Shown: in pieces, positions 36,337 to 52,227 of the stretch
How the letters are laid out: every line of letters begins with the position of its first letter
Position numbering within the stretch: position 1 is the stretch's first letter
Assembly (NCBI GenBank): GCA_020635175.1
Contig: JACKAH010000004.1
Span: 51,995-115,994 of the forward strand
Reading direction: 5' to 3'
DNA length: 64,000 nt
Origin: Deltaproteobacteria bacterium
GTDB lineage: Bacteria > Bdellovibrionota_C > UBA2361 > J135
The notes under the pieces: model-generated
The model's database searches: none
What the model was told of the DNA's origin: nothing
The model's input: only the letters and a program-made list of their open reading frames with translations
Made by a program: the position numbers and the translations under genes

Positions 36337-36410
36337 TTAATATTAGTTAAAAATACGAACAGTTCTTATTCAAATTGAGTTTTTAAAGAAGCGCGACTAA
36401 AAGGAAGGAG

Positions 36411-36451
36411 TAAGAAAAAATAGCACTAGCACACCTTAAAGTGTGCTAGTG
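36411..36451 (-). terminator. Rho-independent terminator after the first L-M-D triplet
   Basis: The minus strand has a perfect 11-bp stem CACTAGCACAC/GTGTGCTAGTG (36441-36451 pairing with 36424-36434) and a 6-nt loop, followed by CTATTTTTTCTTA. It lies 34 nt downstream of the stop at 36485. Confidence 0.75.
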
Positions 36452-36484: not shown

Positions 36485-37261
36485 CTAGAATTCCTTTAAC
36501 TGTAATTCATGCCCGCCTGAGGCTTCAGTTGTAACAACAGTATCAATAGTCACAACTCTGTCTGTAGGCTTAGGTGGCTCTACGGTCAGATTAACCTCTT
36601 TTAATACCTGAATAGACTTCTCAAGAATTCTAGCCTTTGTAACCAAGGCAGGAAGAATCTTGGCATAGTGCTGCTTAACCAGCTTCTTTTGATTAAGTAA
36701 GTTCTGGAGATTTGCAATCTCTGTCTTGATTTTACCAAGCTCGCCATCATTAGTATCAGGAGCTTCAGCTGTATGGCCCTCATCTATTGAAGGTTCGATC
36801 TGAGCATCTCCTGAAGCATCAAGTCTTTGTGGCTCTGATAACCCATCAGGTCCAGGCATTGCACTTGTCTCTACAGATTCCTTTGAGCTTAAATCTCTTG
36901 AGCTAGTACTTACCTGCTCAACTGAGGCAGTCAGAGAGGTAGTAGCTGCAATCTGAGTCGAGCTTGCTGTGATTGCTGCTTTCTTAGCTTGAAATTGCAA
37001 TTTCTTTATTCTTTTCTCTATCTGGCCAACGGTAGAGTCACAACCATTATCGATAGAATTTTGAACATTATTAATCGCTGCTGCTAAGTTACTCAGGTCA
37101 AAGCTTTCGACCTCCCCCAGCTTAAGATGATGATCTCCCTGGATAATCTGGTCAAGGAGCCCATAAACACCTTTCACAAAGCAGTTGCTGAACTCTGCAT
37201 TCGCAGCTGGAGCAACTAGGAGCGAGGCAAAAACTGAGGCTAAAATTATTCTCTTCTTCAT
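36485..37261 (-). CDS. Secreted protein, family D (my label): N-domain with 2 Cys, Ser/Thr-rich region, C-terminal coiled-coil-like segment
   Basis: Signal peptide MKKRIILASVFASLLVAPAANA/EF (ATG 37261, AAGAAGG upstream). Low-complexity ITASSTQIAATTSLTASVEQVSTSS. Heptad-like KIKTEIANLQNLLNQKKLVKQHYAKIL. Confidence 0.6.
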   Translation of the reverse strand: MKKRIILASVFASLLVAPAANAEFSNCFVKGVYGLLDQIIQGDHHLKLGEVESFDLSNLAAAINNVQNSIDNGCDSTVGQIEKRIKKLQFQAKKAAITASSTQIAATTSLTASVEQVSTSSRDLSSKESVETSAMPGPDGLSEPQRLDASGDAQIEPSIDEGHTAEAPDTNDGELGKIKTEIANLQNLLNQKKLVKQHYAKILPALVTKARILEKSIQVLKEVNLTVEPPKPTDRVVTIDTVVTTEASGGHELQLKEF

Positions 37262-37284: not shown

Positions 37285-38049
37285 CTAACAAACCAAATCA
37301 GCAGCATCTGAACCAATGTAGTTTGGATCACCAGCTACACAAGGTCCACTTGGATTAGCAGCGTCGTTCTTATCAGCAACTGTTGCTGTAATCATCGCTA
37401 CTGCTTCACTAACATGATCCAACGTAGTAGAGGAAAGTGCTCCTAACGTAGCTGAATTTGATGCTATATAATCAAACATCGCAAAGAAGCTTCCTTTACA
37501 GACATAACCGTATAGGGCTTCAAACACGACTAGACTAAGAACGTCTTCAAACATTTCGTCGTTAGCTGCTTCTGCGGTTCCTGGCGCAACAGCAGGAAGT
37601 CCAAGTAATGCAGCTTGCTTGTTATTATAGTGATCAATAGCAGCCCAGATTAGGCGATTCATAGGATGCTTAAGAGTCTCTGAGAAATTATCCGGGTTAA
37701 CAAACGAACCGTGTCTAATTAGCTCTGCGAATCGAAAGGCTCCATAGACTTCAAATGCATCTAATGGATTTCCCGCTGCGCACCAAAACATATTATCAAG
37801 CTGAAGTGCGGCAGTTCGATACTTAGTCTCATAGTATATCTTATCATTTAGCCCAGGATCACAGCTCAAAAGTGTAGCTGTAGGCGTCCCAGCGCCATAG
37901 ATACACTGACCAGCACTACCTGAGTTATCAACCTTTGACAGCACGGAGAAGATAGACCACTCAGCAACTGCTACGTTTGATAGGCCCATTACGATAGTGC
38001 ATGCCAGGAAAGAATTTCTTAATAATGTTTTCATTGCTATTCTCTTCAT
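37285..38049 (-). CDS. Secreted six-cysteine protein, family M (my label)
   Basis: Signal peptide (MKRIAMKTLLRNSFLACTIVMGLSNVAVA/EW). Six Cys in the mature part, the last one being the C-terminal residue. NSGSAGQCIYGAGTP...LSC...WCAAGNP...VNPDN aligns with the other M proteins. Confidence 0.65.
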   Translation of the reverse strand: MKRIAMKTLLRNSFLACTIVMGLSNVAVAEWSIFSVLSKVDNSGSAGQCIYGAGTPTATLLSCDPGLNDKIYYETKYRTAALQLDNMFWCAAGNPLDAFEVYGAFRFAELIRHGSFVNPDNFSETLKHPMNRLIWAAIDHYNNKQAALLGLPAVAPGTAEAANDEMFEDVLSLVVFEALYGYVCKGSFFAMFDYIASNSATLGALSSTTLDHVSEAVAMITATVADKNDAANPSGPCVAGDPNYIGSDAADLVC

Positions 38050-38065: not shown

Positions 38066-39214
38066 TTATTGAGCATTACCGCAATACATATCGAACGCGA
38101 GCAGAACCATCTTTGTAAACGGGTCTGATAATGTTAAAGGTTGGCCAGTAATCGGACTAATAGTTGTCCCAAGTCCAATCACATTCTCAACATTATGAAG
38201 CTTTCCAGTGGCATCCCGATGACACAAAGCGGTTGAAGGAAAGATTGGGTTGTAGCTAGCATCAACTGTGTAGCTTCCAATCGGTCCATAAAGAACCTCA
38301 ATGAACTCTTTCATTCCGACTTCACCAAAAACCTGTCCTGAACCGGCCCAAGCTTCGTAGCTAAAAACTTTAGCTGGGTGAGCGCTTGAAAGTGGATGCA
38401 ATGTAGTGTCTTTATGCAAAGTCCAAGGTCCAGCGATGGTGTCAGGATACTTACAGTACGTAGTCTGCACCGGTAATCCTGTGCCTGGGTCAATAATAGT
38501 TTGACCAGTAATAGGATCTACTTTATCTCCGATCTCATACAGGTTACAGATTGCAGCTAAAAGGAAGTTAAACATCGACTTAACGCAACCCCAATCTGGA
38601 CAAGCTGTGTATGGCCCAACAGCTTTTGCAAGCGAAATTGGATCTTGAAAAAGTGGATTTGACGGGTCAAGGTTTCTTCTAATGATACCGTAAGTAATCC
38701 CGGTTACAATTTTCTCAAGGTGACCATTAGCATGGTAACAATTTGAAGCAGAACCTGGTCCCTGTGTGATGGCCTCTGCCTCTTTACAGATGTAAGGGTT
38801 CTGAATATCTACCATCTTAGAAAGAAAGTCATCTGCTAACGCTACTAGCTTTCCTCCGTCGAGTTCCTCTCCAGGAATAACTGCACCCGGTAACAAATAA
38901 CCAGGGTCACATTCAACTCCAGAAGTAGCAACGGTTGACCAGATAGCTTGGGTCGCACCCATTTCAGCTATGCTAGTGTTTTCTAATAAAATCCCAGTCT
39001 GAGGATCCGAGCCACCAGTACATGTTGCTGTACCAACTGAGACATCAACATAATTTGGACCTGGAGGATCAAGAACTGTACAGGTATCAGTATTGCTACT
39101 TGCAGCAAACAGGGGACCAACATCTGGTAATCCCGGTTCACTTGATAACTGCGCGTTAGCTAGGCTTGTGAAAGTTAGTAAACAAGCACCAAAGGCGAGA
39201 ATATGTTTATTCAT
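38066..39214 (-). CDS. Secreted cysteine-rich protein, family L (my label)
   Basis: Signal peptide MNKHILAFGACLLTFTSLANA/QL. TDTCTV...ATCTGG...ICNLYE...YCKYPDT parallels the 35171..36151 product. Confidence 0.65.
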   Translation of the reverse strand: MNKHILAFGACLLTFTSLANAQLSSEPGLPDVGPLFAASSNTDTCTVLDPPGPNYVDVSVGTATCTGGSDPQTGILLENTSIAEMGATQAIWSTVATSGVECDPGYLLPGAVIPGEELDGGKLVALADDFLSKMVDIQNPYICKEAEAITQGPGSASNCYHANGHLEKIVTGITYGIIRRNLDPSNPLFQDPISLAKAVGPYTACPDWGCVKSMFNFLLAAICNLYEIGDKVDPITGQTIIDPGTGLPVQTTYCKYPDTIAGPWTLHKDTTLHPLSSAHPAKVFSYEAWAGSGQVFGEVGMKEFIEVLYGPIGSYTVDASYNPIFPSTALCHRDATGKLHNVENVIGLGTTISPITGQPLTLSDPFTKMVLLAFDMYCGNAQ

Positions 39215-39337
39215 AACAAAGCACCCAAAACAACCTTTCTTTTAAACTTTTAAGCTCTTACTAAAATACAAAGAAGCTGTCGTTTAGAGAGCAAAGCAAC
39301 TTCTATTCCCACTTGAGAGGTGGGGTTAGGGTACGTA

Positions 39338-39394
39338 GTCACTGAACAGATTAGTTCTATAAAGGAATCAATCGCTTAAATGATCCAGCTAAAA
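39338..39394 (-). promoter_or_regulatory. Conserved bipartite element upstream of an L gene (copy 2 of 4)
   Basis: The minus strand reads TTTTAGCTGGATCA-N38-GTGAC, with TTGATT at spacer positions 10-15. It lies 124-180 nt upstream of ATG 39214. Confidence 0.55.
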
Positions 39395-39445
39395 TGATTT
39401 CTTAGACAAAAATGGTGTTTTTTCTTAGATGGTTTTTTGAGGTTC

Positions 39446-42334
39446 TTATTTACTTATATCGAATCTATTGATGACACGATTAAGCTCAATTGTTACACGC
39501 TTAAATAATCTGTCCTTATATTGTGAGTAAGTTTCATTTCCAAGTCCTGCATATTTCTTTGTAATATGCACAAGGGTAATTCCCTCTCTAATAGGCTCAT
39601 TAATACACAGATCTGGATTTACTACTGTAAAGTTAGGTTCTCCATCTAATGGCGTGTTACAAGCTAGGCCAAATGTCGTGCAATCCTTACACATTGCATA
39701 TCGATAAGTATTAGCATCAGGAGTTACAGAAGCTAACGGTGGCTTTAGCCCATCAATTAAAACCTTCTTTTTATTCTCGTCAGTGCTGTTTAATGGGTAA
39801 TCATCTAGCACAACGACCACCTCAATCCCTTCATCCACCATCCGATGAGCCATCTGCACGGTTTCTTTAATAGAGCGGAAAAAAGGCACAGGATCTGGGT
39901 TATCAGCGAGCGCTCCGGCATTTACAGATAACACATCTGGAGTCGGAGGAGGTGGAAACCAAGCCCCATGAAATGTATCTCTTAATACCTGATATAGGCT
40001 TAGCTCTATCAATCCATTTGTAAAAATAACCGCGACCCGCTTTACTTTCTCTGGTTCGGGCACAAATGTTGTATTTGAAAAGACATTATACATATTGAGC
40101 AAAGCACCAGAGCTCAATGAATCTGTAGTTGTGTACTCACGCTTTGGGTACACGTTACTGCTTTCAACAGACCCCAAATATAAACTTCGAGCTCCTGTTA
40201 CGAGGTTAGAGTCATCAGTTGTGTCCAAAATACCGTACCCTGATTTAGAGAAACCCCCTGCCCTAATTGTAGACATCGCACTTGCAACGTTTAAATTAGT
40301 AGCATCCAGCGTATTCTCCATCGCTCCAGGAGTTGTTACATCAGGACAAATTCTATACGGATCCGTAATGTAATTAGTAGTTACCTCATCTCTGTTATAG
40401 CACTCGCCTGTAGGTAAGCCCGTCGTAGAACAGCCGGCAACAAACGGGTTTGGGGTTGCATTGATCCTATCTCTATCCATCCATGCAGGCATTTTTCCAT
40501 CTGTGAACGGAGGTTCATAACATGGGCTATTGAATGGACCACTGGTCGGAGATAATGGGTTAGGATTCGGCCATAGTGAATCTTTATTATCATTTAAAAC
40601 TGCAACAGTGTTGCTTCTTTGATCACCAAAGCAGTCCCCTGATCTAATATTTACAGATGCTGGAAAATCCTTAGGTGGGTTTGCACTATCAAGGGAGTTA
40701 TTAGTAACTGGAGCCCAAGAGGGGCTAGATCTAAAAATAAAATTCAGCAAATTCCTATCTAAAGTTGGTATCTGATGTTTAGTTGGGTCAGCACACTGAG
40801 TCGATGGAGCAACACTAGTAGTTAAATCATAAAAATTTGGTAAGGCCGTAAAGATCTGCACATCGGGTCCTGGAAGCGCATCTGGCCTTATATCTAAAGA
40901 CATTTCACGAGCACAGATACTCATCGGCTGAAGCAACCTATCAAATGCAGCTTGACGAGTAAGTTGTTGGTAGTCTTCGTAAGTTGATGGATCAGTCGTA
41001 TCTACAGGTAAGAGATCCGTATTTCCAAATTCCTGTAATATATAATCCTTACCTGTAAGGGAGCCTTGAAAAGCTCCTGGCGAAGGCCCAAGAGTTGGAA
41101 GTTTTAGAGTCGTGCGCTCATCCCCAGCAAAAGCAGCAGGCATTCCACCACTATATCTATCCTCATAAGAGATAAGTGGCATTAATGGAATAATCCAATT
41201 GCTATAGGTAAATGCACCAAATGGAACTTGATCTCGCTCAAGCATATACATGAATTGCTGTGCAACTCTTTGAGTCCAAAGCTTGTGCGGTCCAAAACAT
41301 CTGTAGGCAAGCTCAGTTTGAGTCATGACACCATGTCGATATTTATACTGCGCTGGAATGGTACTAGCCCAAGCTCTAGTAAAAGGACCTCCGTCCATCC
41401 GTGGGATATACTGCATAGGATCGGGTGGAATTGTCCCAGCGTAGGACGAGGATTGTAAATGGCTAATCGTCTGCGGCACAACATCTGGGTAAGACTGAAG
41501 ATAAGCAGTTGCTTTATCAGAGGGCACTAAAGTAGAGATCACAACGTCCTGTGTCGGTACCCCATTTCCATTTACGCCCATGGTAATCTCTTTCGTCGCA
41601 AATGGAGTGATATAACTTGGGTCAGGAGGAGGTCCTGCTCCTAAAAAAGCAGGTGGTATCCCCGGCAGATAGGATTCATAAAGCATCGGCAAACCCCTAT
41701 CTTCAAGCAGCTGATCCTGTACAGAGGTAAGCGCTCCCCCTGCATCTGAGTGAGCAAAGTGAGTCGGGGGAATTTCGTAGTCAAAAATTCTATAACTTGG
41801 AGAAGAAAAATCCACTCCAACCATCGCAACAGGTGGTTTTTTAACGGCACAACCCTCAGCCCCTCCTATATAAGGGGTAGTTGATAGTAGATTTGTAAAG
41901 TTAAACTGTGCCCTACAGTTATCAAGCTCAATACAGAGCTCAGCTCCTTTAATTGTAACTGCGTTAATTACCTCGTCAGTATACGTAACCTTTATATCGC
42001 AGATATGATCATTGTTCTTAAATCCAATATCATTCCAACTGAAGTTTGTGGTTGGGCAATTTGCTAGCGGGATATTAAAATCTAACCCTAGGTGCTGACA
42101 CGCTACCTGAACCATGTCCGCTTGAGCTGGGCCAACATTTGACGCTGCATTTAGAGCGCTAATTATTGCATTATTAAGACGTGTGCGTGTAGTTAAAACC
42201 TCGGCAGATTTAATTGTCATCATGCCGTAGACAAAAAGCAGCAGAAAACCTATCAGGAAAAAGAAAATTACATAACCCGCGCCGCTTTCTTCACGTGAAC
42301 TTCTAAGCTTATTTAAAACTCTAAGTCTATTCAT
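39446..42334 (-). CDS. TadG-like giant pseudopilin (962 aa) with a split, MIDAS-degenerate vWA-like domain (module A)
   Basis: TadG-type N-terminus ESGAGYVIFFFLIGFLLLFVYGMMTIKSAEVLTTRTRLNNAIISALNAAS. vWA beta1-like PPVAMVGVDFSSPS (Asp at aa 175) and beta4-like RVAVIFTNG (aa ~773), separated by ~600 aa. Paralogue of 43896..46817. Confidence 0.65.
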   Translation of the reverse strand: MNRLRVLNKLRSSREESGAGYVIFFFLIGFLLLFVYGMMTIKSAEVLTTRTRLNNAIISALNAASNVGPAQADMVQVACQHLGLDFNIPLANCPTTNFSWNDIGFKNNDHICDIKVTYTDEVINAVTIKGAELCIELDNCRAQFNFTNLLSTTPYIGGAEGCAVKKPPVAMVGVDFSSPSYRIFDYEIPPTHFAHSDAGGALTSVQDQLLEDRGLPMLYESYLPGIPPAFLGAGPPPDPSYITPFATKEITMGVNGNGVPTQDVVISTLVPSDKATAYLQSYPDVVPQTISHLQSSSYAGTIPPDPMQYIPRMDGGPFTRAWASTIPAQYKYRHGVMTQTELAYRCFGPHKLWTQRVAQQFMYMLERDQVPFGAFTYSNWIIPLMPLISYEDRYSGGMPAAFAGDERTTLKLPTLGPSPGAFQGSLTGKDYILQEFGNTDLLPVDTTDPSTYEDYQQLTRQAAFDRLLQPMSICAREMSLDIRPDALPGPDVQIFTALPNFYDLTTSVAPSTQCADPTKHQIPTLDRNLLNFIFRSSPSWAPVTNNSLDSANPPKDFPASVNIRSGDCFGDQRSNTVAVLNDNKDSLWPNPNPLSPTSGPFNSPCYEPPFTDGKMPAWMDRDRINATPNPFVAGCSTTGLPTGECYNRDEVTTNYITDPYRICPDVTTPGAMENTLDATNLNVASAMSTIRAGGFSKSGYGILDTTDDSNLVTGARSLYLGSVESSNVYPKREYTTTDSLSSGALLNMYNVFSNTTFVPEPEKVKRVAVIFTNGLIELSLYQVLRDTFHGAWFPPPPTPDVLSVNAGALADNPDPVPFFRSIKETVQMAHRMVDEGIEVVVVLDDYPLNSTDENKKKVLIDGLKPPLASVTPDANTYRYAMCKDCTTFGLACNTPLDGEPNFTVVNPDLCINEPIREGITLVHITKKYAGLGNETYSQYKDRLFKRVTIELNRVINRFDISK

Positions 42335-42337: not shown

Positions 42338-43015
42338 TTATCGCTTTGGTACATAAACCCCACTCTGCTCAAATGTCTGAGTCCAGAGTAAAATCCTAAT
42401 CTCTCCTGTGCAGGCCCATACAAAAAATGGTGCATAATCTAAAACAACCTGGATTGAATTTGCTGTATTATTAGGATCCAACACATATTCTGATTCAATC
42501 GGGTTTATAGGGCGATGCATATCGACCATACGACCCTGATAATTTGCTGCCTGAGCTTTCATTAAATTGAGATGAGCATCGGTTCCAGGTGATGATATGT
42601 CTGGGGTGCAGATATCAAAAGCGGGTGTATCAATTACCCAACCAATATTGGGAGAGCCTGAAGTTGTATTTACATTAAGGTAGCAGATAGCTGTCTGACA
42701 GGTAATGTCACTTGTGTTCTGAAATAAATTTGAACCAAAGCCTAAATTGCTGCCGAGCCAATTATTAACAGAGTTAAGTATGCCTGTATTTGCATCAGGA
42801 GTACTGGTCGTACTCCAGGGAACTATATCCCCCGCTTGATTGGTGGTGAATAAATCATACTTTTTAGAATTAAAGGCGGCAAAGTACGCTGCATTGATAT
42901 CACGACGGATCTCAAGCATGGTGTGGAATGCAAAGATAGCGTTAAAAACGGCATACAATACAACCACAACAACCACTAATTCTACGAGTACGTTTGCAGA
43001 ATCCTGTCGTTTCAT
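42338..43015 (-). CDS. TadE-like pseudopilin, second type (module A), 225 aa
   Basis: N-terminus MKRQDSANVLVELVVVVVVLYAVFNAIFAFHTMLEIRRDINAAYFAAF. Paralogue of 46824..47501. Its stop lies 3 nt before the TadG-like start. Confidence 0.6.
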   Translation of the reverse strand: MKRQDSANVLVELVVVVVVLYAVFNAIFAFHTMLEIRRDINAAYFAAFNSKKYDLFTTNQAGDIVPWSTTSTPDANTGILNSVNNWLGSNLGFGSNLFQNTSDITCQTAICYLNVNTTSGSPNIGWVIDTPAFDICTPDISSPGTDAHLNLMKAQAANYQGRMVDMHRPINPIESEYVLDPNNTANSIQVVLDYAPFFVWACTGEIRILLWTQTFEQSGVYVPKR

Positions 43016-43808: not shown

Positions 43809-43875
43809 TCTTGCAACAGATTGCTTTTTTATCAAATAGTACTCAGCTATTTTTATAGAAGATTGCTTGAATATT

Positions 43876-43895: not shown

Positions 43896-46817
43896 CTACT
43901 TACTTGGTTTAAAGCGATGTATGATTCGATTAAGCTCAATTGCAACTCGATGAAAAATTCTTTGCTGGAACTCAGAGTAATTTTCATCATCTGCCCCGCC
44001 AGGATTATACAGCTTAGAGACACGCACTAGATCTATTCCTGCTCGAGTGTGTTTCTTATGACAGGTTTCAGGAGTCGTAGATGAGATAGCAGGTTCTCCA
44101 TCTAATTGAGCACTACAATCAAGTCCAAAGTAATTACAATCCTTACAAATTGCATATGCATAGCTACTATTAGTGGCAGCTGCCCTACCAATTGGCTCTC
44201 TCAATCCATCAATAAATACTTTGCGCTTATTTTCATCAGCTGCATTGGTTGGATAATCGATCATTACGATTACTACCTCGATTCCATCATCTACCATGCG
44301 ATGAATGACCTGGAGAGATTCCTTTACGGCTCGTATGAATGGCGCTCCATCAGGTTCCTGTACAGCCTGGCCAGCTCTAACTGGAAGTACATCTGCGACG
44401 GGCTCATTTGGAAACCAAGCACTATGGTGCCTCCCATCAAGCACATCGTACATACTCAGATTACTAACACCGTCGGTAAAAAGAACTGCAACACGCTTAA
44501 CATCATTAGGATTCGGTGAAACACCTGTTGAACTGTTTAAGATATTATAAGCATTTACCAATGCTCCGGAGGTAAAGTCATCGACCAAAGGTTCACGCTT
44601 TGGATAGACATTTAAGCTCTCAACAGATGTAAGATAAAGATCTCTCGCGTTCGGCGTTAAGTCAGGAATCGAAGGCGAGGTCCTAGGAAGATCTATCGGG
44701 TATCCAGACTTAGTGAATCCACCAGCACGTAAAGCAGAGAGTGCAGAGGCTGCATTTAAATTACTTGGATTTAATGTTGTATCAATTGCAGTTAAGTCAG
44801 AGCAAACTCTAAAGGGGTTAGTTACATCTGATGGCACAACCTCGTCACGATTGTAACAGGCGTTATCTATGCCACCAGTTTGAGTATTACACCCAGTTGC
44901 GTTTGAAACCTGAGCATCGTTTCTATCTCGAGACATATAAGGAGGAATTCTCTGTCCAATTGTCACCCAAGTATTAACAAAACATGGGCTTAATCTATTA
45001 TATGGTGGATTTAGATCTGGTTGAGGCAAAAGAGAATCTTTACCATCAGGTGTTTGAACAGTTCCAAACAAAATTGACATCTGATCTCCAAAACAATCAC
45101 CAGGATAAATTTCATTGGCAGTAACCTCAATACTTCCACCATTTGGAATACCATTTGCGTATTCAGGTAGGTCGTCGTCTTCATTTGAGGTAGTTAACCA
45201 GTTCTTATTAGAGCGAAAGACAAAATTTAATAGTCCTCTCTCAAGTGTTGGAATTTGATGTTTTGAGTTATCAGCGCAGACAGTGTTTGGTTCAAGTACG
45301 CGACTATAATCAAATGCATCAGGTAAAGCTGAAAACGCATGTAGCCCAGGTCTTACCTCATGATTCATCTCCCTTGCACAGATAGTCATGGGCTGAAGGA
45401 TTCTATCAAATGCACTCTGCCGATTCAGAGCTGTGTAGTTTTGATAGTTAGCTGGCAAGCCATCATCCGTAGTATCCGTTGGTAATGCATCGGTATTACC
45501 AAACTGCTCAGCAACAAAATCTCTGCCATTTAAGGTTCCCGGTAGAGAAACCGGATTGGGACCAAGAGTGTGTACATCTAAGGTACTATATATATCAGCT
45601 CCATTTGTTGTACTGTATGTTCCCCACTCCCCACCTGATCTAATCTCATATGGTACAAGTGGCATAATCGGCATAATCCAGTTGCTGTATGCTAAAGCTC
45701 CAAATGGAATCTCATTATCATCTAACATATACATAAACTGCTGAATCATGCGCTGATACCAAAGCTTATGTGGTGCAAAACAACGCTGCGCTAACTCATT
45801 CTGAGTCATCACACCGTGGCGATATTTATAATTCGTATAGTTAGGTTGCTGCTCAGCCCAAGCTTTTGTCTTATTTCCACCATTTATACCTGGAATATAC
45901 TGAACCGGATCTGGTGGAAGAGGAGCGGCATAGGTACTTACGTTACCGTAGCCCTCAGTTTGGGGAACAACATCCGGCATAGATTGTAGATATGCAGAGT
46001 TGATAGTCGACAGTGAAAGAATCGTGTCACCAACTGAGTCAACACCATTTCCGCCAGGCATTGTGATCTCTTTTCTAGAGAATGGCAGATCATATGGAGT
46101 GTATGGACCAGCTACTCCTACCGCTCCAGGAAATGAAATCTGCTGTGTCGGTAAATAAGAGTCGTACATAAATGGAAGAGATCGATCGATTAAAAGATCC
46201 TCTTCCGCTGAAGTTAACACCGGATATCCCGCATCGGAGTGTAAAAAAGGAGGTGGTGTGGTATCTGAATTAAAGGCTTTAACTATAGACCTAGAGTAGT
46301 CTGCCATAATCATCACAACCGGTGGCTTTTTTTCCATACACTGCTCAGCGCCAGCTATGTAGGGGTTGCTGCTTAAGTACTGCAGAAATGTGAAAGTCGA
46401 TTTGCAATTATCAATCTTAAGGCAAGCTTCTTCAGGTTGAATATTTCCAGGGACAATATTTCGGGGTGTATATGTGAAATTAACATCACATTTATAACGT
46501 CCATCATTAAATCTAGCTTCACTAAGTGGGAATGAAGCAGTGCTACAATCGATTGAACCTAAATCAAATCTAGTCTTTAGTTGATTGCAAGTGATTCGCT
46601 GCATCTCAGAGCTGTTTGTCGCTCCATTTGCAACCGCGTTTAATGTTGAAGCAACAAAATTATTCAACTCTAAACGGGTTGTGTACATCTGCTCGGTTTT
46701 GAGCACAATCATCCCGTACATAAAGAGCACGGTAAAGCCAATCAAAAAGAAGATAAGGATAAAACCTTGTTGCTTCTTAGAAAATTTTGCACCTTCATTT
46801 TTCTGCTTGTAGCTCAT
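43896..46817 (-). CDS. TadG-like giant pseudopilin (973 aa) with a split vWA-like domain retaining MIDAS-type residues (module B)
   Basis: N-terminus KQQGFILIFFLIGFTVLFMYGMIVLKTEQMYTTRLELNNFVASTLNAVANG. PPVVMIMADYSRS (DxSxS, Asp at aa 173) and RVAVLFTDG (Asp at aa 782). Strongly conserved central block shared with 39446..42334 (KYRHGVMTQNELAQRCFAPHKLWYQRMIQQFMYML...). Confidence 0.65.
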   Translation of the reverse strand: MSYKQKNEGAKFSKKQQGFILIFFLIGFTVLFMYGMIVLKTEQMYTTRLELNNFVASTLNAVANGATNSSEMQRITCNQLKTRFDLGSIDCSTASFPLSEARFNDGRYKCDVNFTYTPRNIVPGNIQPEEACLKIDNCKSTFTFLQYLSSNPYIAGAEQCMEKKPPVVMIMADYSRSIVKAFNSDTTPPPFLHSDAGYPVLTSAEEDLLIDRSLPFMYDSYLPTQQISFPGAVGVAGPYTPYDLPFSRKEITMPGGNGVDSVGDTILSLSTINSAYLQSMPDVVPQTEGYGNVSTYAAPLPPDPVQYIPGINGGNKTKAWAEQQPNYTNYKYRHGVMTQNELAQRCFAPHKLWYQRMIQQFMYMLDDNEIPFGALAYSNWIMPIMPLVPYEIRSGGEWGTYSTTNGADIYSTLDVHTLGPNPVSLPGTLNGRDFVAEQFGNTDALPTDTTDDGLPANYQNYTALNRQSAFDRILQPMTICAREMNHEVRPGLHAFSALPDAFDYSRVLEPNTVCADNSKHQIPTLERGLLNFVFRSNKNWLTTSNEDDDLPEYANGIPNGGSIEVTANEIYPGDCFGDQMSILFGTVQTPDGKDSLLPQPDLNPPYNRLSPCFVNTWVTIGQRIPPYMSRDRNDAQVSNATGCNTQTGGIDNACYNRDEVVPSDVTNPFRVCSDLTAIDTTLNPSNLNAASALSALRAGGFTKSGYPIDLPRTSPSIPDLTPNARDLYLTSVESLNVYPKREPLVDDFTSGALVNAYNILNSSTGVSPNPNDVKRVAVLFTDGVSNLSMYDVLDGRHHSAWFPNEPVADVLPVRAGQAVQEPDGAPFIRAVKESLQVIHRMVDDGIEVVIVMIDYPTNAADENKRKVFIDGLREPIGRAAATNSSYAYAICKDCNYFGLDCSAQLDGEPAISSTTPETCHKKHTRAGIDLVRVSKLYNPGGADDENYSEFQQRIFHRVAIELNRIIHRFKPSK

Positions 46818-46823: not shown

Positions 46824-47501
46824 TTATCTCTTTGGAACAAAGACCCCTGACTCATTAAACTTTCCATACCAAAGAAAGATTCGATACGTACCTCTACAAG
46901 CCCAAACAAAATATGGAGCGTACTCAAAGTAGACCGGATATACTTCATTGCTAGACGGCGTTGGCATAACATCACGATCTAAAATGTATTCAGTCTCTTT
47001 AGGATTAAGCACTGTTCCTTTAACCTTATCATAGTATTCAAAGGCCTCAGTTCTTAAACTTTCAAGAGTAGTGCCAGCTGACGGGGCAGCAACCGATGGG
47101 ACACAAAAATTATCAGGATTTGATGAGCTTAAGACTCTTCCAAAATTAGCTGGATCTGTTGTTTCAACATCCAAGTAACAGATCGTAATTTTACAAGTTA
47201 TCTTAGATGAATTTCTGTAGAGCGTTGAACCAAAGTTCATGTTATGTGCTAGATTTGCCTCTAACTCGTCAACTAACTCTTGATGAACATTTGCCTCAGT
47301 GAATTTTACTAAATCACCACCAACATTTGTTGTAAAAGCTTCGAGGGTAGGAGTTGTAAAGACCGAGAAGACAGAAGAGTTAACGGTCCTACGAATATCC
47401 TCCATACCGTGCAAACCTAATATTCCATTTAAGACGGCAAGCAAAACAACGAAAGTAACTAAAACCTCAATCACGGCAGAGCCTGGCTCTTGCCTTTTCA
47501 T
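46824..47501 (-). CDS. TadE-like pseudopilin, second type (module B)
   Basis: MKRQEPG/SAVIEVLVTFVVLLAVLNGILGLHGMEDIRR carries a G/XXXXE-type processing motif. The start at ATG 47501 was chosen by homology with 42338..43015; the track ORF extends to 47567 (GTG). Confidence 0.6.
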   Translation of the reverse strand: MKRQEPGSAVIEVLVTFVVLLAVLNGILGLHGMEDIRRTVNSSVFSVFTTPTLEAFTTNVGGDLVKFTEANVHQELVDELEANLAHNMNFGSTLYRNSSKITCKITICYLDVETTDPANFGRVLSSSNPDNFCVPSVAAPSAGTTLESLRTEAFEYYDKVKGTVLNPKETEYILDRDVMPTPSSNEVYPVYFEYAPYFVWACRGTYRIFLWYGKFNESGVFVPKR

Positions 47502-47577: not shown

Positions 47578-48171
47578 TTATATAACGTTCATCTCAGAAC
47601 TAGCTGTATGACACACTGTGTGAGAATGTAAAAAGATTGATGGTGGCCGTACACATACTTGCCACTGAGAACATGCATCTGAGCTTTGACAGTTAGCTGC
47701 ATTCTCTCTAACAGTACTTCCTGGGTCAGAGCATTCGCGTGGAACTATCACTACCTCACCCTCTTTTATACTCTCAGTGTTGAGATCCCAGTTTACCGCT
47801 GTCTTTACCTTATTTCCAAAGACACGTTGCGCTTCACCTAATGCTAAGTTTATCACCCTTCTTTTTTGAGCTTGCATGCGTCCGCCACAATAGCTCATTA
47901 AATAGCTATCATCTTGAGAAGATACTGGAAGCTTTAATAAGCCTAACACAGGAGCGCTCCCAGTTTTATCATTAGGTCGCTCTGCAATGCTTACTCTAGC
48001 AGCTGTCATGGCGACCCACTGCGCAGCAGATGAGTATCTAGAGATTGAGATAAAATCAAAAGCTGAGAATATAATTGTCGAGATAAACACAAATGAGATT
48101 GCAGCCCCAATTGTGTATGCACCACGCTCGTTCGAAAACATTTTACTACCCATATTATTTTGACCCGACAT
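47578..48171 (-). CDS. TadE/TadF-like pseudopilin (module B), 197 aa
   Basis: FSNERGAYTIGAAISFVFISTIIFSAFDFISISRY...AMTAARVSIA. Paralogue of 32480..33091 along its whole length, including the C-terminal Cys pattern. Confidence 0.6.
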   Translation of the reverse strand: MSGQNNMGSKMFSNERGAYTIGAAISFVFISTIIFSAFDFISISRYSSAAQWVAMTAARVSIAERPNDKTGSAPVLGLLKLPVSSQDDSYLMSYCGGRMQAQKRRVINLALGEAQRVFGNKVKTAVNWDLNTESIKEGEVVIVPRECSDPGSTVRENAANCQSSDACSQWQVCVRPPSIFLHSHTVCHTASSEMNVI

Positions 48172-48178: not shown

Positions 48179-48403
48179 CTAATGTATCTCTACTGAATTT
48201 GCAGCTACTGCGCCTCTTATCAAAGCTGAAGGATATGCTGCTGTCGCGTTAACAAAGCTTTGCTTCTGGCGTTTATCAAAGTCTGTTAACGCATTTTTAA
48301 TCGCTGGAAAGCCAGATAACGCAACTAAAGTAATCATAGCAGCTACAAGCATAAACTCTGAAGCGATTGAACCTCTTTCATTTCGTCTCTTTAAACTTTC
48401 CAT
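48179..48403 (-). CDS. Flp-like prepilin (module B), 74 aa
   Basis: MESLKRRNERG/SIASEFMLVAAMITLVALSGF fits the Flp leader plus G/XXXXE[YF] motif and hydrophobic core. AGGGGA upstream of ATG 48403. Confidence 0.6.
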   Translation of the reverse strand: MESLKRRNERGSIASEFMLVAAMITLVALSGFPAIKNALTDFDKRQKQSFVNATAAYPSALIRGAVAANSVEIH

Positions 48404-48446: not shown

Positions 48447-49148
48447 CTACTGTGAAATCACATGAATCTCTGCACTATCATCAATTCTAACTCTACCGTC
48501 AGCATCATCCTGACCTGCAACTGGCTTTTGTAATCTCTCTAAGTTGTAAAGCATCATCTCAAAGATAGCTTTATACTGAGACATAGTAGAAACAGTTGGT
48601 CTATTACTGCCGCTGTCTCCATTCCCATCAGGGTCAGTAGTACTTTCACCGTCATTTGGATTAATTATTGTATTAAGACTATCTGAGCGATCCAAGGTTT
48701 TTGAAGCTCTATCACTTAAGCTATCCGCTGTTCTTTTAGTGCTGCTTGAAGTATCAGCTTCAAGACTAACTTGCATAGTGTTCGGCGAACGTAAAGCAGA
48801 CTCTGCGCCACCATCATCGTCAGAAACGACCATTGGAGCAGCTGGCCCAGTACAGGTATACATTTCAGCCATGAAATCTTTGACCTGTTGAATCGTATTA
48901 TCCAATACCTGCTGATTTGGGTTTTGAGAAAATGTTAACGAAGCATACTGATATGAAAGATATCGCATGATGTAGTTAAGCCACTCAGGCGAACATGGAG
49001 CTGGCCTAGGCACTGCTGTTGCTGAGCCAAATGGGCCTGCAACTTGCGTAGCGCTCACCCCAGGCTGCACTGAAGACTGGGCATAGACACTAAGTGTTAA
49101 AAGCCCTTGTAGAATAAAACCTAAAACTAATACCTTTTTCATTTTCAA
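48447..49148 (-). CDS. Secreted protein, family D (my label)
   Basis: Signal peptide MKMKKVLVLGFILQGLLTLSVYA/QS. Two-Cys N-domain, a Ser/Asp/Thr-rich low-complexity middle, and a helical segment followed by an acidic tail. Confidence 0.6.
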   Translation of the reverse strand: MKMKKVLVLGFILQGLLTLSVYAQSSVQPGVSATQVAGPFGSATAVPRPAPCSPEWLNYIMRYLSYQYASLTFSQNPNQQVLDNTIQQVKDFMAEMYTCTGPAAPMVVSDDDGGAESALRSPNTMQVSLEADTSSSTKRTADSLSDRASKTLDRSDSLNTIINPNDGESTTDPDGNGDSGSNRPTVSTMSQYKAIFEMMLYNLERLQKPVAGQDDADGRVRIDDSAEIHVISQ

Positions 49149-49178
49149 CCTCTAATCAAGACAACTAAAATTTAAACC

Positions 49179-49979
49179 TTAAGGCAAACAGTACAAACTC
49201 TTTAAAAAACCGTTCCACATATATGGAGAGTACGTAAAGTAGTGTGTAGCTTGATCGTCACAAACACCATCTGCTCCCTGATCAAAGATCTGATTTAGCA
49301 CAGACAAAACTGTTGGTGCTTCCCATGTATTGTTAAACCAAATCGTTGGATTTGAATGCATAATCTTTAGGATCTTAACGAAATCAGGATACTGACAAGT
49401 GTCTTCTGGTAAGGCAGTAGTTCTAGAAAGATAGAACTGCTCTGCTGCACGAAGAGTGTAGTTAATTTCGTTATTCCAATCTAATGGCCTAGCTTCATTA
49501 TTATAAATCTCTTCAGGAGTTGCATAGTTATCTCCAGGATTGTGAATCTTATAAACTGCAGAAGCGACCATAAATAATAATGGGTGAACAATCTGATTGT
49601 TATTTGGATCAACTCTGACATCCCAACGAATTGCGCCAAAGGTTTGCCAAACGGAAGCTAACGCGCGGTATGGCATTAACTGACCAAGAGCTGTTGATTT
49701 TGTGCAATCAAGTAAAGGGTTATTAACATTCATCTGTAGTGTGCGCGTCTCAGCATCTTGCGCAACCACGTTGCCTACAGCAACACAATCAAGAGTTGAG
49801 GTTTGTCCTGTTTGTGGGTTAGCAACTTCACAAGCGCCAGGCAATCCACCTTGTGTGTTCATCGTAATCTGATCAGCAGTGCTTGTGATATCATCAAGCG
49901 TACCCGCTGAGACACTAAATGGTGCTGTGATTGATAGAATTAAAGCTAATTTATAAAACTTACAAAACATCTTCTTCAT
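49179..49979 (-). CDS. Secreted six-cysteine protein, family M (my label)
   Basis: Signal peptide ...LILSITAPFSVSA/GT. Six Cys in the mature part, the last 3 residues from the C-terminus. GACEV...LDC...LDC...VDPNN...TCQYPD aligns with the other M proteins. Confidence 0.6.
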   Translation of the reverse strand: MKKMFCKFYKLALILSITAPFSVSAGTLDDITSTADQITMNTQGGLPGACEVANPQTGQTSTLDCVAVGNVVAQDAETRTLQMNVNNPLLDCTKSTALGQLMPYRALASVWQTFGAIRWDVRVDPNNNQIVHPLLFMVASAVYKIHNPGDNYATPEEIYNNEARPLDWNNEINYTLRAAEQFYLSRTTALPEDTCQYPDFVKILKIMHSNPTIWFNNTWEAPTVLSVLNQIFDQGADGVCDDQATHYFTYSPYMWNGFLKSLYCLP

Positions 49980-50019
49980 TTTTCTACCCTTATTATTAAA
50001 ACCTTTTTAACCTCTAAGC

Positions 50020-50913
50020 CTAAATACACACTGCATTAGCTATGTAGTACTGTAATCCAAGCGTACTGAACCAAGTTTGGTAGTTCTGTGCTGTGACACC
50101 GTTGCAAGCACCGTTCAATGGATCAAAGAGAACTTTAGCTGCAACCTCTAGACAACTTTCACCTGAGCCTGGTGTACAATCTTTCAAATCAAGTTTGTTC
50201 TTAATTACTGAATCAGGACTATTAAGATCAGCAGCGACATTTAAGAGTAAGCGATTCATGTCTGAAGATTTACAGATTATCTTTTCAGCAAATGCACTCT
50301 GTTGATTAGTTTCGACAAAGTAAATGAACTGCATCAAATCAGCGAAAAGTTGTGCTAGCGAGCTGTAATCACAAGCTGCGCCACAATTTGAAAAGTGATC
50401 AGCATCTGCAAATAAGCCTACGCCAAGTGCTTTCTCTGCGGTTTGCCGAAGTGCATGCCAGCGCACATCTAGGCATGATTCAGGTGATGTAACACAGCCT
50501 GGGTTTTGCTCATTGTTAAATTGGCCAAAGAAAGCAGTGGCAAGACTTGCAAAGATTGAACGAGCATCACCCGCTAAAGCATCAACCGTAACTATGTTTA
50601 AAAGCGGATAGCCCTCAACACAGCTAGCACCGTATAAAAATGGAGCATTTAAACCGGAAACAGCAACCGACACTAAGGCACCAATCACACCAGCATCCTG
50701 AGACTGAGTAGCACCTTCACATTGGCGATAAAAATTGTTGCTACTTGCTGCGATTTGAAGACTAATAGAGTTACTTGTTGAGAGTTCGCAAGTATCAGGA
50801 GAAACCGCATTAGTTGAATATATATCACCTAAGTTAAACGGTGCTGCATACGCAGAAGCAACTGAAATTGCCTGTATTAAGAGGATGACCGAGAAGCGTT
50901 TAAAACTAGCCAT
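50020..50913 (-). CDS. Secreted twelve-cysteine protein, family L (my label)
   Basis: Signal peptide MASFKRFSVILLIQAISVASAYA/AP (ATG 50913). Twelve Cys at positions alignable with the neighbouring paralogue 51112..52008 (PDTCEL...RQCEG...SCVEGYP...). Confidence 0.65.
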   Translation of the reverse strand: MASFKRFSVILLIQAISVASAYAAPFNLGDIYSTNAVSPDTCELSTSNSISLQIAASSNNFYRQCEGATQSQDAGVIGALVSVAVSGLNAPFLYGASCVEGYPLLNIVTVDALAGDARSIFASLATAFFGQFNNEQNPGCVTSPESCLDVRWHALRQTAEKALGVGLFADADHFSNCGAACDYSSLAQLFADLMQFIYFVETNQQSAFAEKIICKSSDMNRLLLNVAADLNSPDSVIKNKLDLKDCTPGSGESCLEVAAKVLFDPLNGACNGVTAQNYQTWFSTLGLQYYIANAVCI

Positions 50914-51005
50914 TATATTACCCCACAATAAACCAGAAACACATAAACTAAACATAAGACAGTGCAAAACTCGTGCTACAAAATGTGGGAAATCATCCCA
51001 CTTTT

Positions 51006-51062
51006 GTTACTAAAACAAACCTTTCCCAAGTAAATACAGCTAACTACCTGATCCACCTAAAA
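51006..51062 (-). promoter_or_regulatory. Conserved bipartite element upstream of an L gene (copy 3 of 4)
   Basis: The minus strand reads TTTTAGGTGGATCA-N38-GTAAC. Four nt further on comes the hairpin GTGGGA-N5-TCCCAC (50985-51001). Confidence 0.55.
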
Positions 51063-51111
51063 AAACCCCTTAAATTAAAATGGTAACTTTTCGTAGATTT
51101 TGCAACAGAGC

Positions 51112-52008
51112 TTAGAAGTAGTTGCAAACTGCATCAGCTAAATGAGGTGGCAACTGATAAACAGATTGCCAGTTTGTGTAGACACCAAACCCATCACGCT
51201 CACAAGCTCCACCTAGATCAAAGAGATTTCGAACAACAAGTTCTGCACAACTCTCTGTGTATCCAGCACTACACGCTTTGAAATTAAGCTCTGTATTGAC
51301 GATTGAGTTTGGATTTTGAAATGCCTGATGCATCCTAAAATAGGTTTCATTTACATCATTTGACTGACATTCAATTCTGTTATTGTTTGGACTTAGCTGG
51401 TCCGTCACAACAAAAAACGAAAACTGTAGAACCTCTGCAAAAACTCTCGATCGTTGCTCTTCATCACAATTGACACTACAGCTTTCGTAGTAGCTCGGAT
51501 CCCCATGTAGCGCCTGTCCTAACATATGATCCGCTACTTGACGCTGAAAGGAATAGGTCGCTTCTGTGCAACTTTCTAAGTCATTTAGACAGTTAGTAGT
51601 GTTAGATTCATTTAAAAATTGGCCCTGAAATGCAGTGGAAATGCTTGCAAAAATCGAACGAACATCACCTAACATACCGTTAAAAGTGGCGATGTTTTCA
51701 ACCGGATAGCCTTGAAAACAGCTAGAACCAAATGTGTGTGCAGCCTTATATCCTGCTGACATTACTGTAACCATGGCAGTAGCTGCGCCAGCATCCTGTA
51801 AAAGAGTCTGTCCTTCACAACTTTTATCGAAACCGTTAGCAGAGCCAAAGACATTGCTAACTCTATTATTTGCTGAAAGCGTACAACTGTCCTGCAAGGA
51901 TGAATACTCTAGTGAGCTTCCTAGATTTAGTGGCAAAGCAAACGAACTATTAGAAAGACAACAAAGTTGAGCAGCTAAAAAACCAGACAACAAAAGTAAC
52001 CGTGTCAT
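51112..52008 (-). CDS. Secreted twelve-cysteine protein, family L (my label)
   Basis: Signal peptide MTRLLLLSGFLAAQLCCLSNSSFA/LP (ATG 52008). Twelve Cys in the mature part (QDSCTL...KSCEG...SCFQGYP...). Paralogue of 50020..50913. Confidence 0.65.
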   Translation of the reverse strand: MTRLLLLSGFLAAQLCCLSNSSFALPLNLGSSLEYSSLQDSCTLSANNRVSNVFGSANGFDKSCEGQTLLQDAGAATAMVTVMSAGYKAAHTFGSSCFQGYPVENIATFNGMLGDVRSIFASISTAFQGQFLNESNTTNCLNDLESCTEATYSFQRQVADHMLGQALHGDPSYYESCSVNCDEEQRSRVFAEVLQFSFFVVTDQLSPNNNRIECQSNDVNETYFRMHQAFQNPNSIVNTELNFKACSAGYTESCAELVVRNLFDLGGACERDGFGVYTNWQSVYQLPPHLADAVCNYF

Positions 52009-52112
52009 ATTTAAACCCCATAACAAAAATAGCACGCCACAACACACATCCACAGGTATCTAGAGAACAAGCAATTCTCATACTCATAAATGCGGGAAAA
52101 AATCCCACGCAT

Positions 52113-52169
52113 GTTACCAAATCGCTTGATTCTTAAATGATATCAAAAGGCTGCGTGATCCAGGTCAAA
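52113..52169 (-). promoter_or_regulatory. Conserved bipartite element upstream of an L gene (copy 4 of 4)
   Basis: The minus strand reads TTTGACCTGGATCA-N38-GTAAC, with TTGATA at spacer positions 10-15. Four nt further on comes the hairpin GTGGGA-N5-TCCCGC (52092-52108; the U-G wobble preserves pairing). Confidence 0.55.
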
Positions 52170-52227
52170 TGCATTCGTAGAGGAAAATGGTATGTTTTCC
52201 TACCTTTTATAAATGGCAGCGTCCCCT

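Follow-up and report, generated by a model that had tools for sequence, protein, structure and literature searches.

Here, we report an analysis of four adjacent genes, designated L1b, L2b, Mb and Db, that occupy positions 48447-52008 of a 64,000-nucleotide (nt) stretch of contig JACKAH010000004.1 (the window, taken at its full length) in a metagenome-assembled genome (MAG) of a Deltaproteobacteria bacterium (GCA_020635175.1). The genes lie at the head of a cluster (module B) that continues into genes for pilin-like proteins, and two further L-M-D sets were found in a second cluster (module A) of the same window. On the basis of gene order, predicted signal peptides, cysteine (Cys) frameworks and a shared upstream element, we suggest that L, M and D may be exported by Sec, fold by disulfide formation and serve Tad-type tip modules as partners or cargo, a tentative reading to which we give a probability of roughly 40%.

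Module B consists of eight genes on the minus strand. Its promoter-proximal half is made up of L1b, L2b, Mb and Db, transcribed in this order, and an open reading frame (ORF) for a Flp-like protein follows (coordinates of all features are shown in Table 1). This order and the sizes given in the initial annotation (L 313/298, L 315/297, M 266 and D 233 amino acids (aa)) agreed with the ORF list and with the NCBI gene calls. The flp-like gene that it had placed directly after D was also found there, beginning 7-43 nt past the Db stop, depending on the start codon chosen. The NCBI calls of the source MAG agree with the shorter starts and label all of these genes as 'hypothetical protein' (locus tags H6619_02925-02950, MCB9029978-83). 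Further downstream, the gaps are 7-37 nt between the Flp-like and TadE-like genes, 10-76 nt between the TadE-like and TadF-like (T247) genes and 6 nt between T247 and the giant TadG/KilN-like gene (T973); if the closest candidate starts are taken, L2b and the genes after it are separated by 6-43 nt (T247 by up to 76 nt). The ORFs of the interval are intact, and two independent Logan assemblies (SRR12358675 and SRR12358676) carry exactly the same DNA (100% identity) and therefore offer no population variation to exploit.

Module A, also entirely on the minus strand, has the order TadF-like (225 aa), giant (962 aa), L1a-M1a-D1a, L2a-M2a-D2a, Flp-like and TadE-like, with L-M-D starts that overlap or nearly do so and a gap of 39-54 nt between D2a and the Flp-like gene. 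Two cassettes, one in each module, run on across 7-54-nt gaps into a Flp-like and then a TadE-like gene, and that of module B continues further into the TadF-like and giant genes. Since the cassettes are co-oriented with the pilin-like genes and the gaps are very short, co-transcription is likely. The anchored proteins of the two modules are clearly paralogous (BLASTP identity of 47% for the giants T962 and T973, 43% for the TadE-like pair and 38-40% for the TadF-like pair), which indicates that modules A and B arose by duplication.

The paralogy of L1b and L2b is solid on sequence comparison: the two proteins are 38% identical over 304 aa (BLASTP E 1e-65; Smith-Waterman z = 78). At this level of amino-acid identity, the synonymous sites needed for dN/dS are saturated. 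As the initial annotation had proposed, each has 12 alignable mature Cys, and all 12 fall in common alignment columns (12/12). The motifs that it had listed were likewise found (DSCTL/DTCEL, SCEG/QCEG, SCFQGYP/SCVEGYP, ECQSND/ICKSSD and a C-terminal AVC), and Mb has the six mature Cys (plus one in the signal peptide) and the VDPNN and CQYPD motifs attributed to it. Counterparts of the Mb motifs in module A are CKYPD (L1a), CKFPD (L2a), VVDPTD (M2a) and FVNPDN (M1a). L1b, L2b, Mb and Db carry canonical Sec signal peptides for signal peptidase I (SPase-I) that end in AXA (SNSSFA/LPLN in L1b and ASAYA/APFN in L2b, the slash standing at the end of the signal peptide). All ten L, M and D proteins of the window have SPase-I signals and no further hydrophobic segment, and their mature isoelectric points are 4.3-4.5 (4.3-4.4 for L1b and L2b, 4.3 for Db), except for D1a (5.1) and D2a (9.2). 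G-rich sequences (TGGGG/GGGAG) stand upstream of the L start codons. L1b and L2b are real, exported proteins, probably with six disulfides each, and not chance ORFs; Mb and Db are likewise real genes, whose products are acidic, disulfide-rich and exported by Sec. With regard to the other members, it should be noted that the number of mature Cys is odd in L1a (11) and L2a (9), 12 in both module-B L proteins and six in every M; the unpaired Cys of L1a and L2a could form an intermolecular disulfide.

The initial annotation had also proposed one divergent superfamily of L proteins and a family of M proteins that extends over both modules, and had counted a lack of statistical homology between modules A and B against this proposal. 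Within module A, the L and M proteins are similar to each other by standard tests (BLASTP E 5e-5 and Smith-Waterman z 7.7 for L1a vs L2a; BLASTP E 5e-12 for M1a vs M2a). Across modules, the L proteins are less than 20% identical, and standard protein tests of the L and M proteins did not detect homology: the best BLASTP E was 0.11, Smith-Waterman z was 0.8-1.9, and the probabilities of hhalign were 2% and 0.2%. A profile of L1b and L2b searched with HMMER against 1.84e9 representative proteins did not retrieve L1a or L2a. On the other hand, three other lines of evidence, namely the Cys framework, the motifs and the upstream DNA, oppose the conclusion that the two sets are unrelated.

For the first of these, the spacing of mature Cys was compared with random placement of the same number of Cys. 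In the M proteins the spacings, in residues, are 15-27-103-45-24 (Mb), 14-27-94-53-17 (M1a) and 14-26-88-43-17 (M2a), and cross-module pairs (six Cys) gave p values of 5e-5 to 2.5e-4. The first seven Cys of the L proteins are spaced 22-33-43-7-30-4 (L1b), 20-37-41-16-46-5 (L1a) and 23-38-32-15-33-7 (L2a), with cross-module p values of 5e-4 to 1.4e-3 that are somewhat optimistic, as the number of seven was chosen after the MAFFT alignment had been viewed. These values equal those of the within-module pairs supported by BLAST; in the controls, unrelated Cys-rich neighbours gave p 0.6-0.9 and true TadE-like paralogues p < 5e-5. A multiple alignment with a Cys map, which the initial annotation had recommended as a check, placed 6-7 Cys of the four L proteins in common columns (MAFFT). 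Two other approaches were discarded: semi-global alignment with counting of Cys columns collapsed onto short overlaps, and a chain statistic that permitted skipped Cys was powerless for the Cys-rich L proteins. In comparisons of profile hidden Markov models (HMMs) with shuffled sequences, nominal significance was reached from the module-B L proteins to L2a (p 0.001, 1/1000) and from the module-A M proteins to Mb (5-7/1000), and the other pairs were not significant.

Motifs around the Cys point in the same direction. At the first Cys, D[ST]C[TE][LV] is present in all four L proteins, with C[ET]G at the second. CxxGxP at the third is found in L1b, L2b, L2a, M1a and M2a, and is replaced in L1a by CDPGYL. 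A motif of the general form C[KQ]xxD appears as C[KQ][YF]PD in L1a, L2a and Mb and as CQSND/CKSSD in L1b/L2b, and six of the seven L and M proteins have a Cys 0-10 residues from the C-terminus. Because L and M share motifs at equivalent Cys, the two families appear to be tied to each other. Judged from these sequence features, L and M most likely represent one very divergent Cys-framework superfamily, in which M is the shorter form and which has seven members in 20 kb. Across modules, such a superfamily is plausible from the framework, motif and upstream-DNA evidence and is not demonstrable by protein similarity statistics. The proposal of the initial annotation was supported for L by Cys spacing, motifs, the shuffle comparison and the upstream element described below, and for M by Cys spacing and the shuffle comparison, and in neither case by the standard similarity tests.

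The upstream DNA of the L genes contains a conserved element, which we term the L-box. A repeat search found the 18-mer TTTTAGGTGGATCAGGTA (coding strand) in three intergenic regions, and with up to three mismatches it had four matches in the window against 0.07 expected. The complete element is ~95 nt long and essentially gap-free, with a single 1-nt gap in the L2a copy; its consensus is TAnGAAAA...ACCATTTT...CTAAG...TTTTAGsTGGATCA...GTAACA, and the copies are pairwise 52-62% identical. An nhmmer model of the four copies found exactly four sites, upstream of the four L genes, and none elsewhere on either strand (128 kb of strand). When the model was built from the module-A copies, those of module B were the best non-self matches (E 6.2e-7 for copy 1 and 1.7e-4 for copy 2); the reverse search gave E 1e-7 (copy 3) and 0.06, and leave-one-out searches gave E 1.2e-8 (copy 1) and 2.3e-5. 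The L-box showed neither a consensus RNA fold nor an Rfam match, by which a structured RNA was ruled out. It therefore probably exerts its effect as DNA and is probably a promoter or an operator; a sigma-54 promoter pattern was considered and rejected, as it occurs at chance frequency only. The identity of ~55-60% in this non-coding element, although the downstream proteins are less than 20% identical, suggests selection on the L-box and supports independently that the four L genes are co-regulated and of common descent. Since each L gene is headed by an L-box, L(-M-D) appears to be a co-regulated cassette, and the L-box can be put forward as a new, predicted cis-regulatory element.

The units behind the L-boxes differ in their extent. 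L1b stands alone as an L gene, with its stop 15 nt ahead of the next L-box. The L2b and L2a units continue into the Flp-like and TadE-like genes with no terminator, and for the pilin-like genes of module B neither an L-box nor any other promoter could be recognised. L1a-M1a-D1a has an L-box before it and a strong intrinsic-terminator-like hairpin after it and is thus a self-contained unit, which means that the cassette does not always run on into pilin genes. Some leaders contain additional hairpins. In that of L2b, GTGGGA-N5-TCCCAC (50985-51001, minus strand) lies directly downstream of L-box copy 2 and was flagged as terminator-like by the scanner; a similar hairpin, GTGGGA-N5-TCCCGC, is located downstream of copy 1 in the L1b leader (about 52087-52103), and the L1a leader has the reversed arm order CCCAC-N7-GTGGG (about 39301-39317). 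These palindromes may be operators, attenuators or structures of the leader.

The D proteins present a different picture. The initial annotation had described a recurrent set of three families, and the L-M-D order does occur three times in the window. However, D is not a family at the sequence level, as no significant similarity between Db, D1a and D2a could be observed by BLASTP, Smith-Waterman or HMM-versus-shuffle comparison. The best signal was that between the heads of Db and D2a (p 8/2000), in which the first Cys is misaligned. What these proteins have in common is their position, a signal peptide, a Cys-Cys spacing of 47, 47 and 48 residues and a long disordered middle, which is acidic in Db (two-Cys head C52-C99) and D1a and partly basic in D2a. 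The D proteins are positional and architectural analogues only; their homology is unproven.

All 18 cluster proteins, as well as isolated N-termini, were scanned against Pfam and NCBIfam. No cluster family had a match in Pfam, NCBIfam or PDB, and PDB sequence searches with five profiles returned nothing meaningful. A word-index search with L2b found L2b itself only, and the exhaustive HMMER search with the L1b+L2b profile (1.84e9 representatives) found L1b, L2b and a spurious tandem-repeat protein (P0006). The M profile retrieved the three M proteins of this MAG and nothing else. The giant protein retrieved its own paralogue and one partial relative of 639 aa, encoded in a Ca. Dadabacteria MAG (contig of 2.9 kb); this is the sole outside relative of any cluster protein in the searches run, and nothing informative lies downstream of it. 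Scans for related loci gave just the Dadabacteria contig among genome contigs and nothing among metagenome contigs, and a tblastn search of plasmids with the giant protein had no match. From these searches, L, M and D appear to be lineage-restricted families, with no relatives detected outside this MAG.

The proteins encoded next to the cassettes resemble pilins in several respects. Tad pilins carry the motif G/XXXXE[YF]: a basic leader ends in G at -1, E stands at +5, position +6 is aromatic or hydrophobic, and a hydrophobic helix follows. Class-III-signal-like N-termini were recognised in the Flp-like proteins (KRRNERG/SIASEF in module B and RRNEAG/ISMMEA in module A). The corresponding N-termini are NERG/AYTIG (B) and NERG/SYLLS (A) in the TadE-like, QEPG/SAVIEV (B) and QDSA/NVLVEL (A) in the TadF-like and KQQG/FILIFF (B) and SGAG/YVIFFF (A) in the giant proteins. 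These anchored proteins share a short basic leader, G or A at -1 and a hydrophobic helix, and four of the eight have E at +5. The Flp-like ORFs of both modules fit the prepilin motif on reading of the sequence; that of module B has G at -1, E at +5, F at +6 and then a hydrophobic helix. In both modules the sizes of the anchored proteins (~75-100, ~200, ~225 and ~970 aa) follow the Flp/TadE/TadF/TadG series, and the TadE-like, TadF-like and giant proteins of module B have even numbers of Cys (6, 4 and 18), which recalls the disulfide-rich Kil Tips described below. The Flp-like ORFs as whole proteins had no Pfam or NCBIfam match at E <= 1, and no Pfam match to VWA (PF00092) was found in the giant proteins at E <= 1. 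In the giant protein, a MIDAS-like DxSxS motif, DYSRS, was noticed by eye close to residue 173, and VAVLFTDG follows ~600 residues later, close to residue 776; the giant proteins could contain a VWA domain split by a huge insertion. The neighbours show no match to the Pfam pilin families, and their likeness to pilins is one of layout.

If L, M and D are partners or cargo of the neighbouring pilin-like proteins, they would be exported by Sec and undergo oxidative folding in the periplasm, and the folded proteins would then join the minor-pilin 'tip' complex encoded beside them. A Tad-type pilus with a motor encoded elsewhere might then carry them at its tip or release them from it. With two sets in module A and, in module B, one set and an additional L, the paralogues may supply alternative specificities of tip or cargo, in the manner of the interchangeable Kil Tips of Myxococcus or the TcpF/CofJ cargo of type IVb pili. 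Between the modules, L, M and D have diverged much more than their pseudopilin neighbours (47%, 43% and 38% identity), a pattern that fits exposed, specificity-determining proteins.

Several findings weigh against this interpretation. The adjacency is known from a single genome, and modules A and B are duplicates of each other, so that there is no independent phylogenetic co-occurrence. One of the L-M-D units (L1a-M1a-D1a) has its own terminator and is not joined to pilin genes. The pilin identity of the Flp-, TadE- and TadG-like neighbours is at the level of N-terminal motifs read by eye: the eight anchored proteins had no Pfam match to Flp (PF04964) or TadE-like/Tad (PF07811 and PF13400), with N-termini examined at E <= 10, and they match no PDB sequence. 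Genes for a prepilin peptidase, ATPase, platform protein or secretin were not detected, either among the Pfam-scanned ORFs of the window or among the called genes 3.6-6.5 kb past its ends. Finally, the AlphaFold2 models of Mb (three-sequence alignment) and L1b (four-sequence alignment) had predicted local distance difference test (pLDDT) scores of 38 and 42 and were unusable, and a Foldseek search of the L model against PDB gave a meaningless best E of 3.5, by which no fold was assigned. In both low-confidence models an N-terminal beta-hairpin was predicted around the first two Cys, followed by helices.

Of the alternatives, the one that survives best, though we consider it rather unlikely, views L, M and D as secreted or periplasmic proteins in their own right (for example, exoproteins, toxins, surface antigens or binding proteins), the adjacency being a legacy of one segmental duplication. 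The initial annotation had argued from recurrence beside each pilin module that L, M and D act together with the filament proteins. The co-orientation and short gaps speak for that argument; however, the modules are paralogous duplicates and recurrence is thus not independent evidence, the pilin identity is at the level of motifs, and one set is self-contained. If the proteins were independent, the recurrence would amount to one event plus local duplications. This would agree with the separate L-box and terminator of L1a-M1a-D1a, the solo position of L1b, the location of the L-box ahead of L genes only and never of pilin-like genes, and the lack of pilus machinery nearby. On the other hand, no terminator is present in the Db-Flp (7-43 nt) or D2a-Flp (39-54 nt) gap, the adjacency has been retained in both modules despite less than 20% identity of L, M and D, and the pilin-like genes of module B appear to have neither an L-box nor a recognisable promoter to themselves.

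It would be harder to sustain that L, M and D act in the periplasm as assembly factors or chaperones that assist the folding, stability or piloting of the Cys-rich pseudopilin-like proteins, especially the 18-Cys giant, and do not enter the exported structure. Assembly factors are normally more conserved than their clients, whereas L, M and D diverge much faster than theirs, and the two or three divergent copies per module and the solo L fit variable specificity better. This improbable scenario could nevertheless account for the fact that each L-M-D set shares a module with Cys-rich anchored proteins, for the disordered D proteins, which could be tethers or chaperones, and for the overlapping or nearly overlapping L-M-D starts of module A, which suggest stoichiometric co-production.

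A similarly low probability is given to the view that the whole 20-kb region is not related to pili, its signal-anchored envelope proteins and L, M and D forming a lineage-specific, disulfide-rich surface or envelope system. Such a system would explain why no Flp, TadE, Tad or VWA HMM match was obtained even at E <= 10, why no PDB relative was found, why no machinery genes were found nearby and why the families lack relatives outside the MAG, except for the partial one of the giant protein. However, the same four anchored proteins occur in both modules and match the sizes of Flp, TadE, TadF and TadG and the layout of the Kil Tips of Myxococcus xanthus (see below), and their N-termini are class-III-like (NERG/S..., G or A at -1, E at +5 in 4/8). 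The remaining possibility, that the ORFs are pseudogenes (which the initial annotation had named as a refuting condition) or chance ORFs, finds some support in the lack of database homologues and the purely hypothetical NCBI labels but is effectively refuted by the conservation between paralogues (12/12 Cys kept at 38% identity in the two L proteins and a six-Cys framework in three M proteins), together with intact ORFs of 231-298 codons, canonical signal peptides, and a conserved upstream element and G-rich sequences ahead of the L starts.

Beyond a role as tip partners or cargo, the L-M-D set may represent a previously unknown modular 'payload cassette' of three disulfide-locked non-pilin proteins exported by Sec, composed of two members of one new fold family and a disordered tether, with its own L-box switch, docking on a TadE/TadF/TadG-like tip and diversifying fast, so as to alter the targets or the payload of the pilus; we regard this more specific proposal as doubtful. 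If it is true, the idea of an 'adaptable tip' would extend to exchangeable non-pilin cargo in an uncultured lineage. Regardless of its fate, the data point to at least one new exported protein superfamily (L/M), with seven paralogues in 20 kb, and offer a worked example of remote paralogy that is missed by standard protein tests and recovered via Cys frameworks and upstream DNA. Should the link to pili fail, the region would still be a lineage-specific island of orphan envelope genes.

Table 1 Coordinates of the genes, L-box copies and terminator-like hairpin of modules A and B (window positions)
Feature	Position	Strand	Remarks
L-box copy 1	52109..52204	-	~100-195 nt before L1b ATG; nhmmer E 4.7e-23 (four-copy model)
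L1b	51112..52008	-	Exported 12-Cys protein, 298 aa, ATG at 52008; MCB9029983.1, "hypothetical protein" (NCBI)
L1b, longest ORF	51112-52053	-	313 aa
L-box copy 2	51003..51097	-	15 nt past L1b stop, upstream of L2b; exact core TTTTAGGTGGATCAGGTA
L2b	50020..50913	-	Exported 12-Cys protein, 297 aa, ATG at 50913; P0001, H6619_02945
L2b, longest ORF	50020-50967	-	315 aa
Mb	49179..49979	-	Exported 6-Cys protein, 266 aa; H6619_02940
Db	48447..49142	-	Exported, 231 aa from ATG 49142 (233 aa from TTG 49148); MCB9029980.1
Flp-like prepilin candidate, module B	48179..48403	-	74 aa (86 aa from TTG 48439); KRRNERG/SIASEFMLVAAMITLVAL; MCB9029979.1, hypothetical
TadE-like pseudopilin candidate, module B	47578..48171	-	197 aa (NCBI: 187 aa), 6 Cys, leader NERG/AYTIGAA
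TadF-like pseudopilin candidate, module B (T247)	46824..47501	-	225 aa from MKRQEPG/SAVIEVLV (up to 247 aa); E at +5; 4 mature Cys
Giant TadG/KilN-like candidate, module B (T973)	43896..46817	-	973 aa, N-terminal anchor KKQQG/FILIFFLIGF, 18 Cys
TadF-like paralogue, module A	42338..43015	-	225 aa
Giant TadG/KilN-like paralogue, module A (T962)	39446..42334	-	962 aa, 18 Cys
L-box copy 3	39335..39429	-	17 nt past T962 stop, upstream of L1a
L1a	38066..39214	-	Exported, 382 aa, 11 mature Cys
M1a	37285..38049	-	Exported, 6 Cys; longest ORF to 38076, overlapping L1a stop
D1a	36485..37261	-	Exported; 2-Cys head (C37-C84); disordered S/T/E-rich middle
Intrinsic-terminator-like hairpin	36424..36451	-	After D1a; 12-bp stem, 6 GC pairs, T-run
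L-box copy 4	36277..36369	-	Upstream of L2a
L2a	35171..36151	-	Exported, 9 mature Cys
M2a	34417..35142	-	Exported, 6 Cys
D2a	33471..34388	-	Exported, 4 Cys, basic disordered middle
Flp-like candidate, module A	33120..33416	-	RRNEAG/ISMMEAGMVMALLIG; motif only, no HMM match
TadE-like candidate, module A	32480..33091	-	203 aa, 6 Cys

We also inspected the surroundings of the two modules. Exactly between modules B and A lies a HicA-like toxin ORF (43604-43816, minus strand; GSNHDIWTNG...IPRHNEI), and beside it a HicB/Xre-type antitoxin (43197-43604, minus strand) with a Pfam HTH_3 match and a weak MqsA_antitoxin match. Marks of a genomic island were not observed around the cluster, with respect to tRNA genes and GC shift. 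A respiratory cluster similar to those for alternative complex III lies directly downstream of module A (24838-32246, minus strand). Among its genes are those for a multihaem cytochrome c (of the c7/c3 type by Pfam), polytopic membrane proteins (one with a weak NrfD match) and a CxxCH cytochrome, and a 1008-aa ORF has a twin-arginine-like leader and Fe-S cysteine clusters, as judged from sequence. On the plus strand, one ORF of 1898 aa (7044-12740) joins a TamB domain to several POTRA repeats and an Omp85 barrel and has the look of a TamB-TamA/BamA-like fusion. Past the right end of the window, about 100 nt beyond its last gene, lies the gene for a 652-aa protein in which Pfam recognises bona fide VWA and VWA_2 domains (flanking locus L004, 11571-13529); several ORFs with no Pfam match follow. 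Within the window, the ORFs at 1361-3166 (601 aa), 13456-15711 (751 aa), 15713-17338 (541 aa; polytopic, with a soluble C-terminal domain) and 56890-58452 (520 aa) also have no Pfam match, and these four further large ORFs suggest that the genome is generally rich in orphan proteins.

With respect to known systems, the modules are similar to the canonical tad locus (flp-tadV-rcpCAB-tadZABCDEFG) in the size series and order of Flp, TadE, TadF and TadG and in leaders of the G/XXXXE[YF] type. They differ from it in that tadV, rcpA, tadA, tadB and tadC were not found (in the window and 3.6-6.5 kb beyond), that HMM matches are lacking, and that three or four extra exported Cys-rich proteins are encoded upstream of flp. 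Secreted proteins encoded together with pilin genes are known from other pili, and in enterotoxigenic Escherichia coli the secreted partner of the CofB pilus (colonization factor antigen III, CFA/III) is CofJ. In the toxin-coregulated pilus (TCP) of Vibrio cholerae, TcpF is described as docking on the tip minor pilin TcpB (PMC12075869, PMC9565799), and a type IVb pilus with CofB is treated together with a secreted protein (PMC6048534). TcpF and CofJ, like L, M and D, are soluble proteins with Sec signals; their genes share an operon with pilin genes, and they act outside the cell via the pilus tip and not as pilins. Unlike the L-M-D set, they belong to a type IVb (T4b) and not a Tad filament, each system has a single cargo protein and not a trio, and no sequence relation exists. 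PilC/PilY1 are Sec-exported non-pilin tip proteins that dock by C-terminal strand complementation, whereas TadG/CpaL supplies its own strand, and a giant TadG-type protein is the tip backbone in Tad pili (PMC12918778). PilC/PilY1 are also encoded with minor pilins and join the tip initiation complex, but PilY1 is large, consists of one protein only and uses a beta-strand at its C-terminus for docking, and there is no sequence similarity; that the C-terminal tails of L, M or D dock in the same way is speculation.

The closest published analogue is the set of Tip clusters of the Kil Tad pilus of Myxococcus xanthus, and modules A and B look like two such clusters. Four paralogous clusters of TadE/F/G-type tip proteins (KilM, KilL and KilN), located away from the machinery genes, are described in the relevant passages of PMC12075869. 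There, KilN is giant and variable, with a distal domain that has no structural relative, and numerous intramolecular disulfides are predicted in the Kil Tips. The same passages mention the Flp adapters KilK and KilO, the latter inside one tip cluster, and report that the N-terminal alpha1N helix bundle of the Tips is conserved and that the distal domains vary between paralogous sets. These passages on the Kil clusters (PMC12075869) do not describe Sec-exported accessory genes of the L/M/D type or an element of the L-box type, and the neighbours in our window differ from the Kil Tips in that neither sequence nor HMM comparison detected a likeness to TadE/F/G or Flp. Modules A and B, like the Kil Tips, are paralogous, Cys-rich and without machinery nearby, and contain small, medium and giant pilin-like proteins together with a Flp-like gene. 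If L, M and D are indeed partners or cargo of such tips, Tad tips would acquire their functions by two routes: through variable minor pilins, as in the Kil system of Myxococcus, and through fast-evolving non-pilin exported proteins with a switch of their own.

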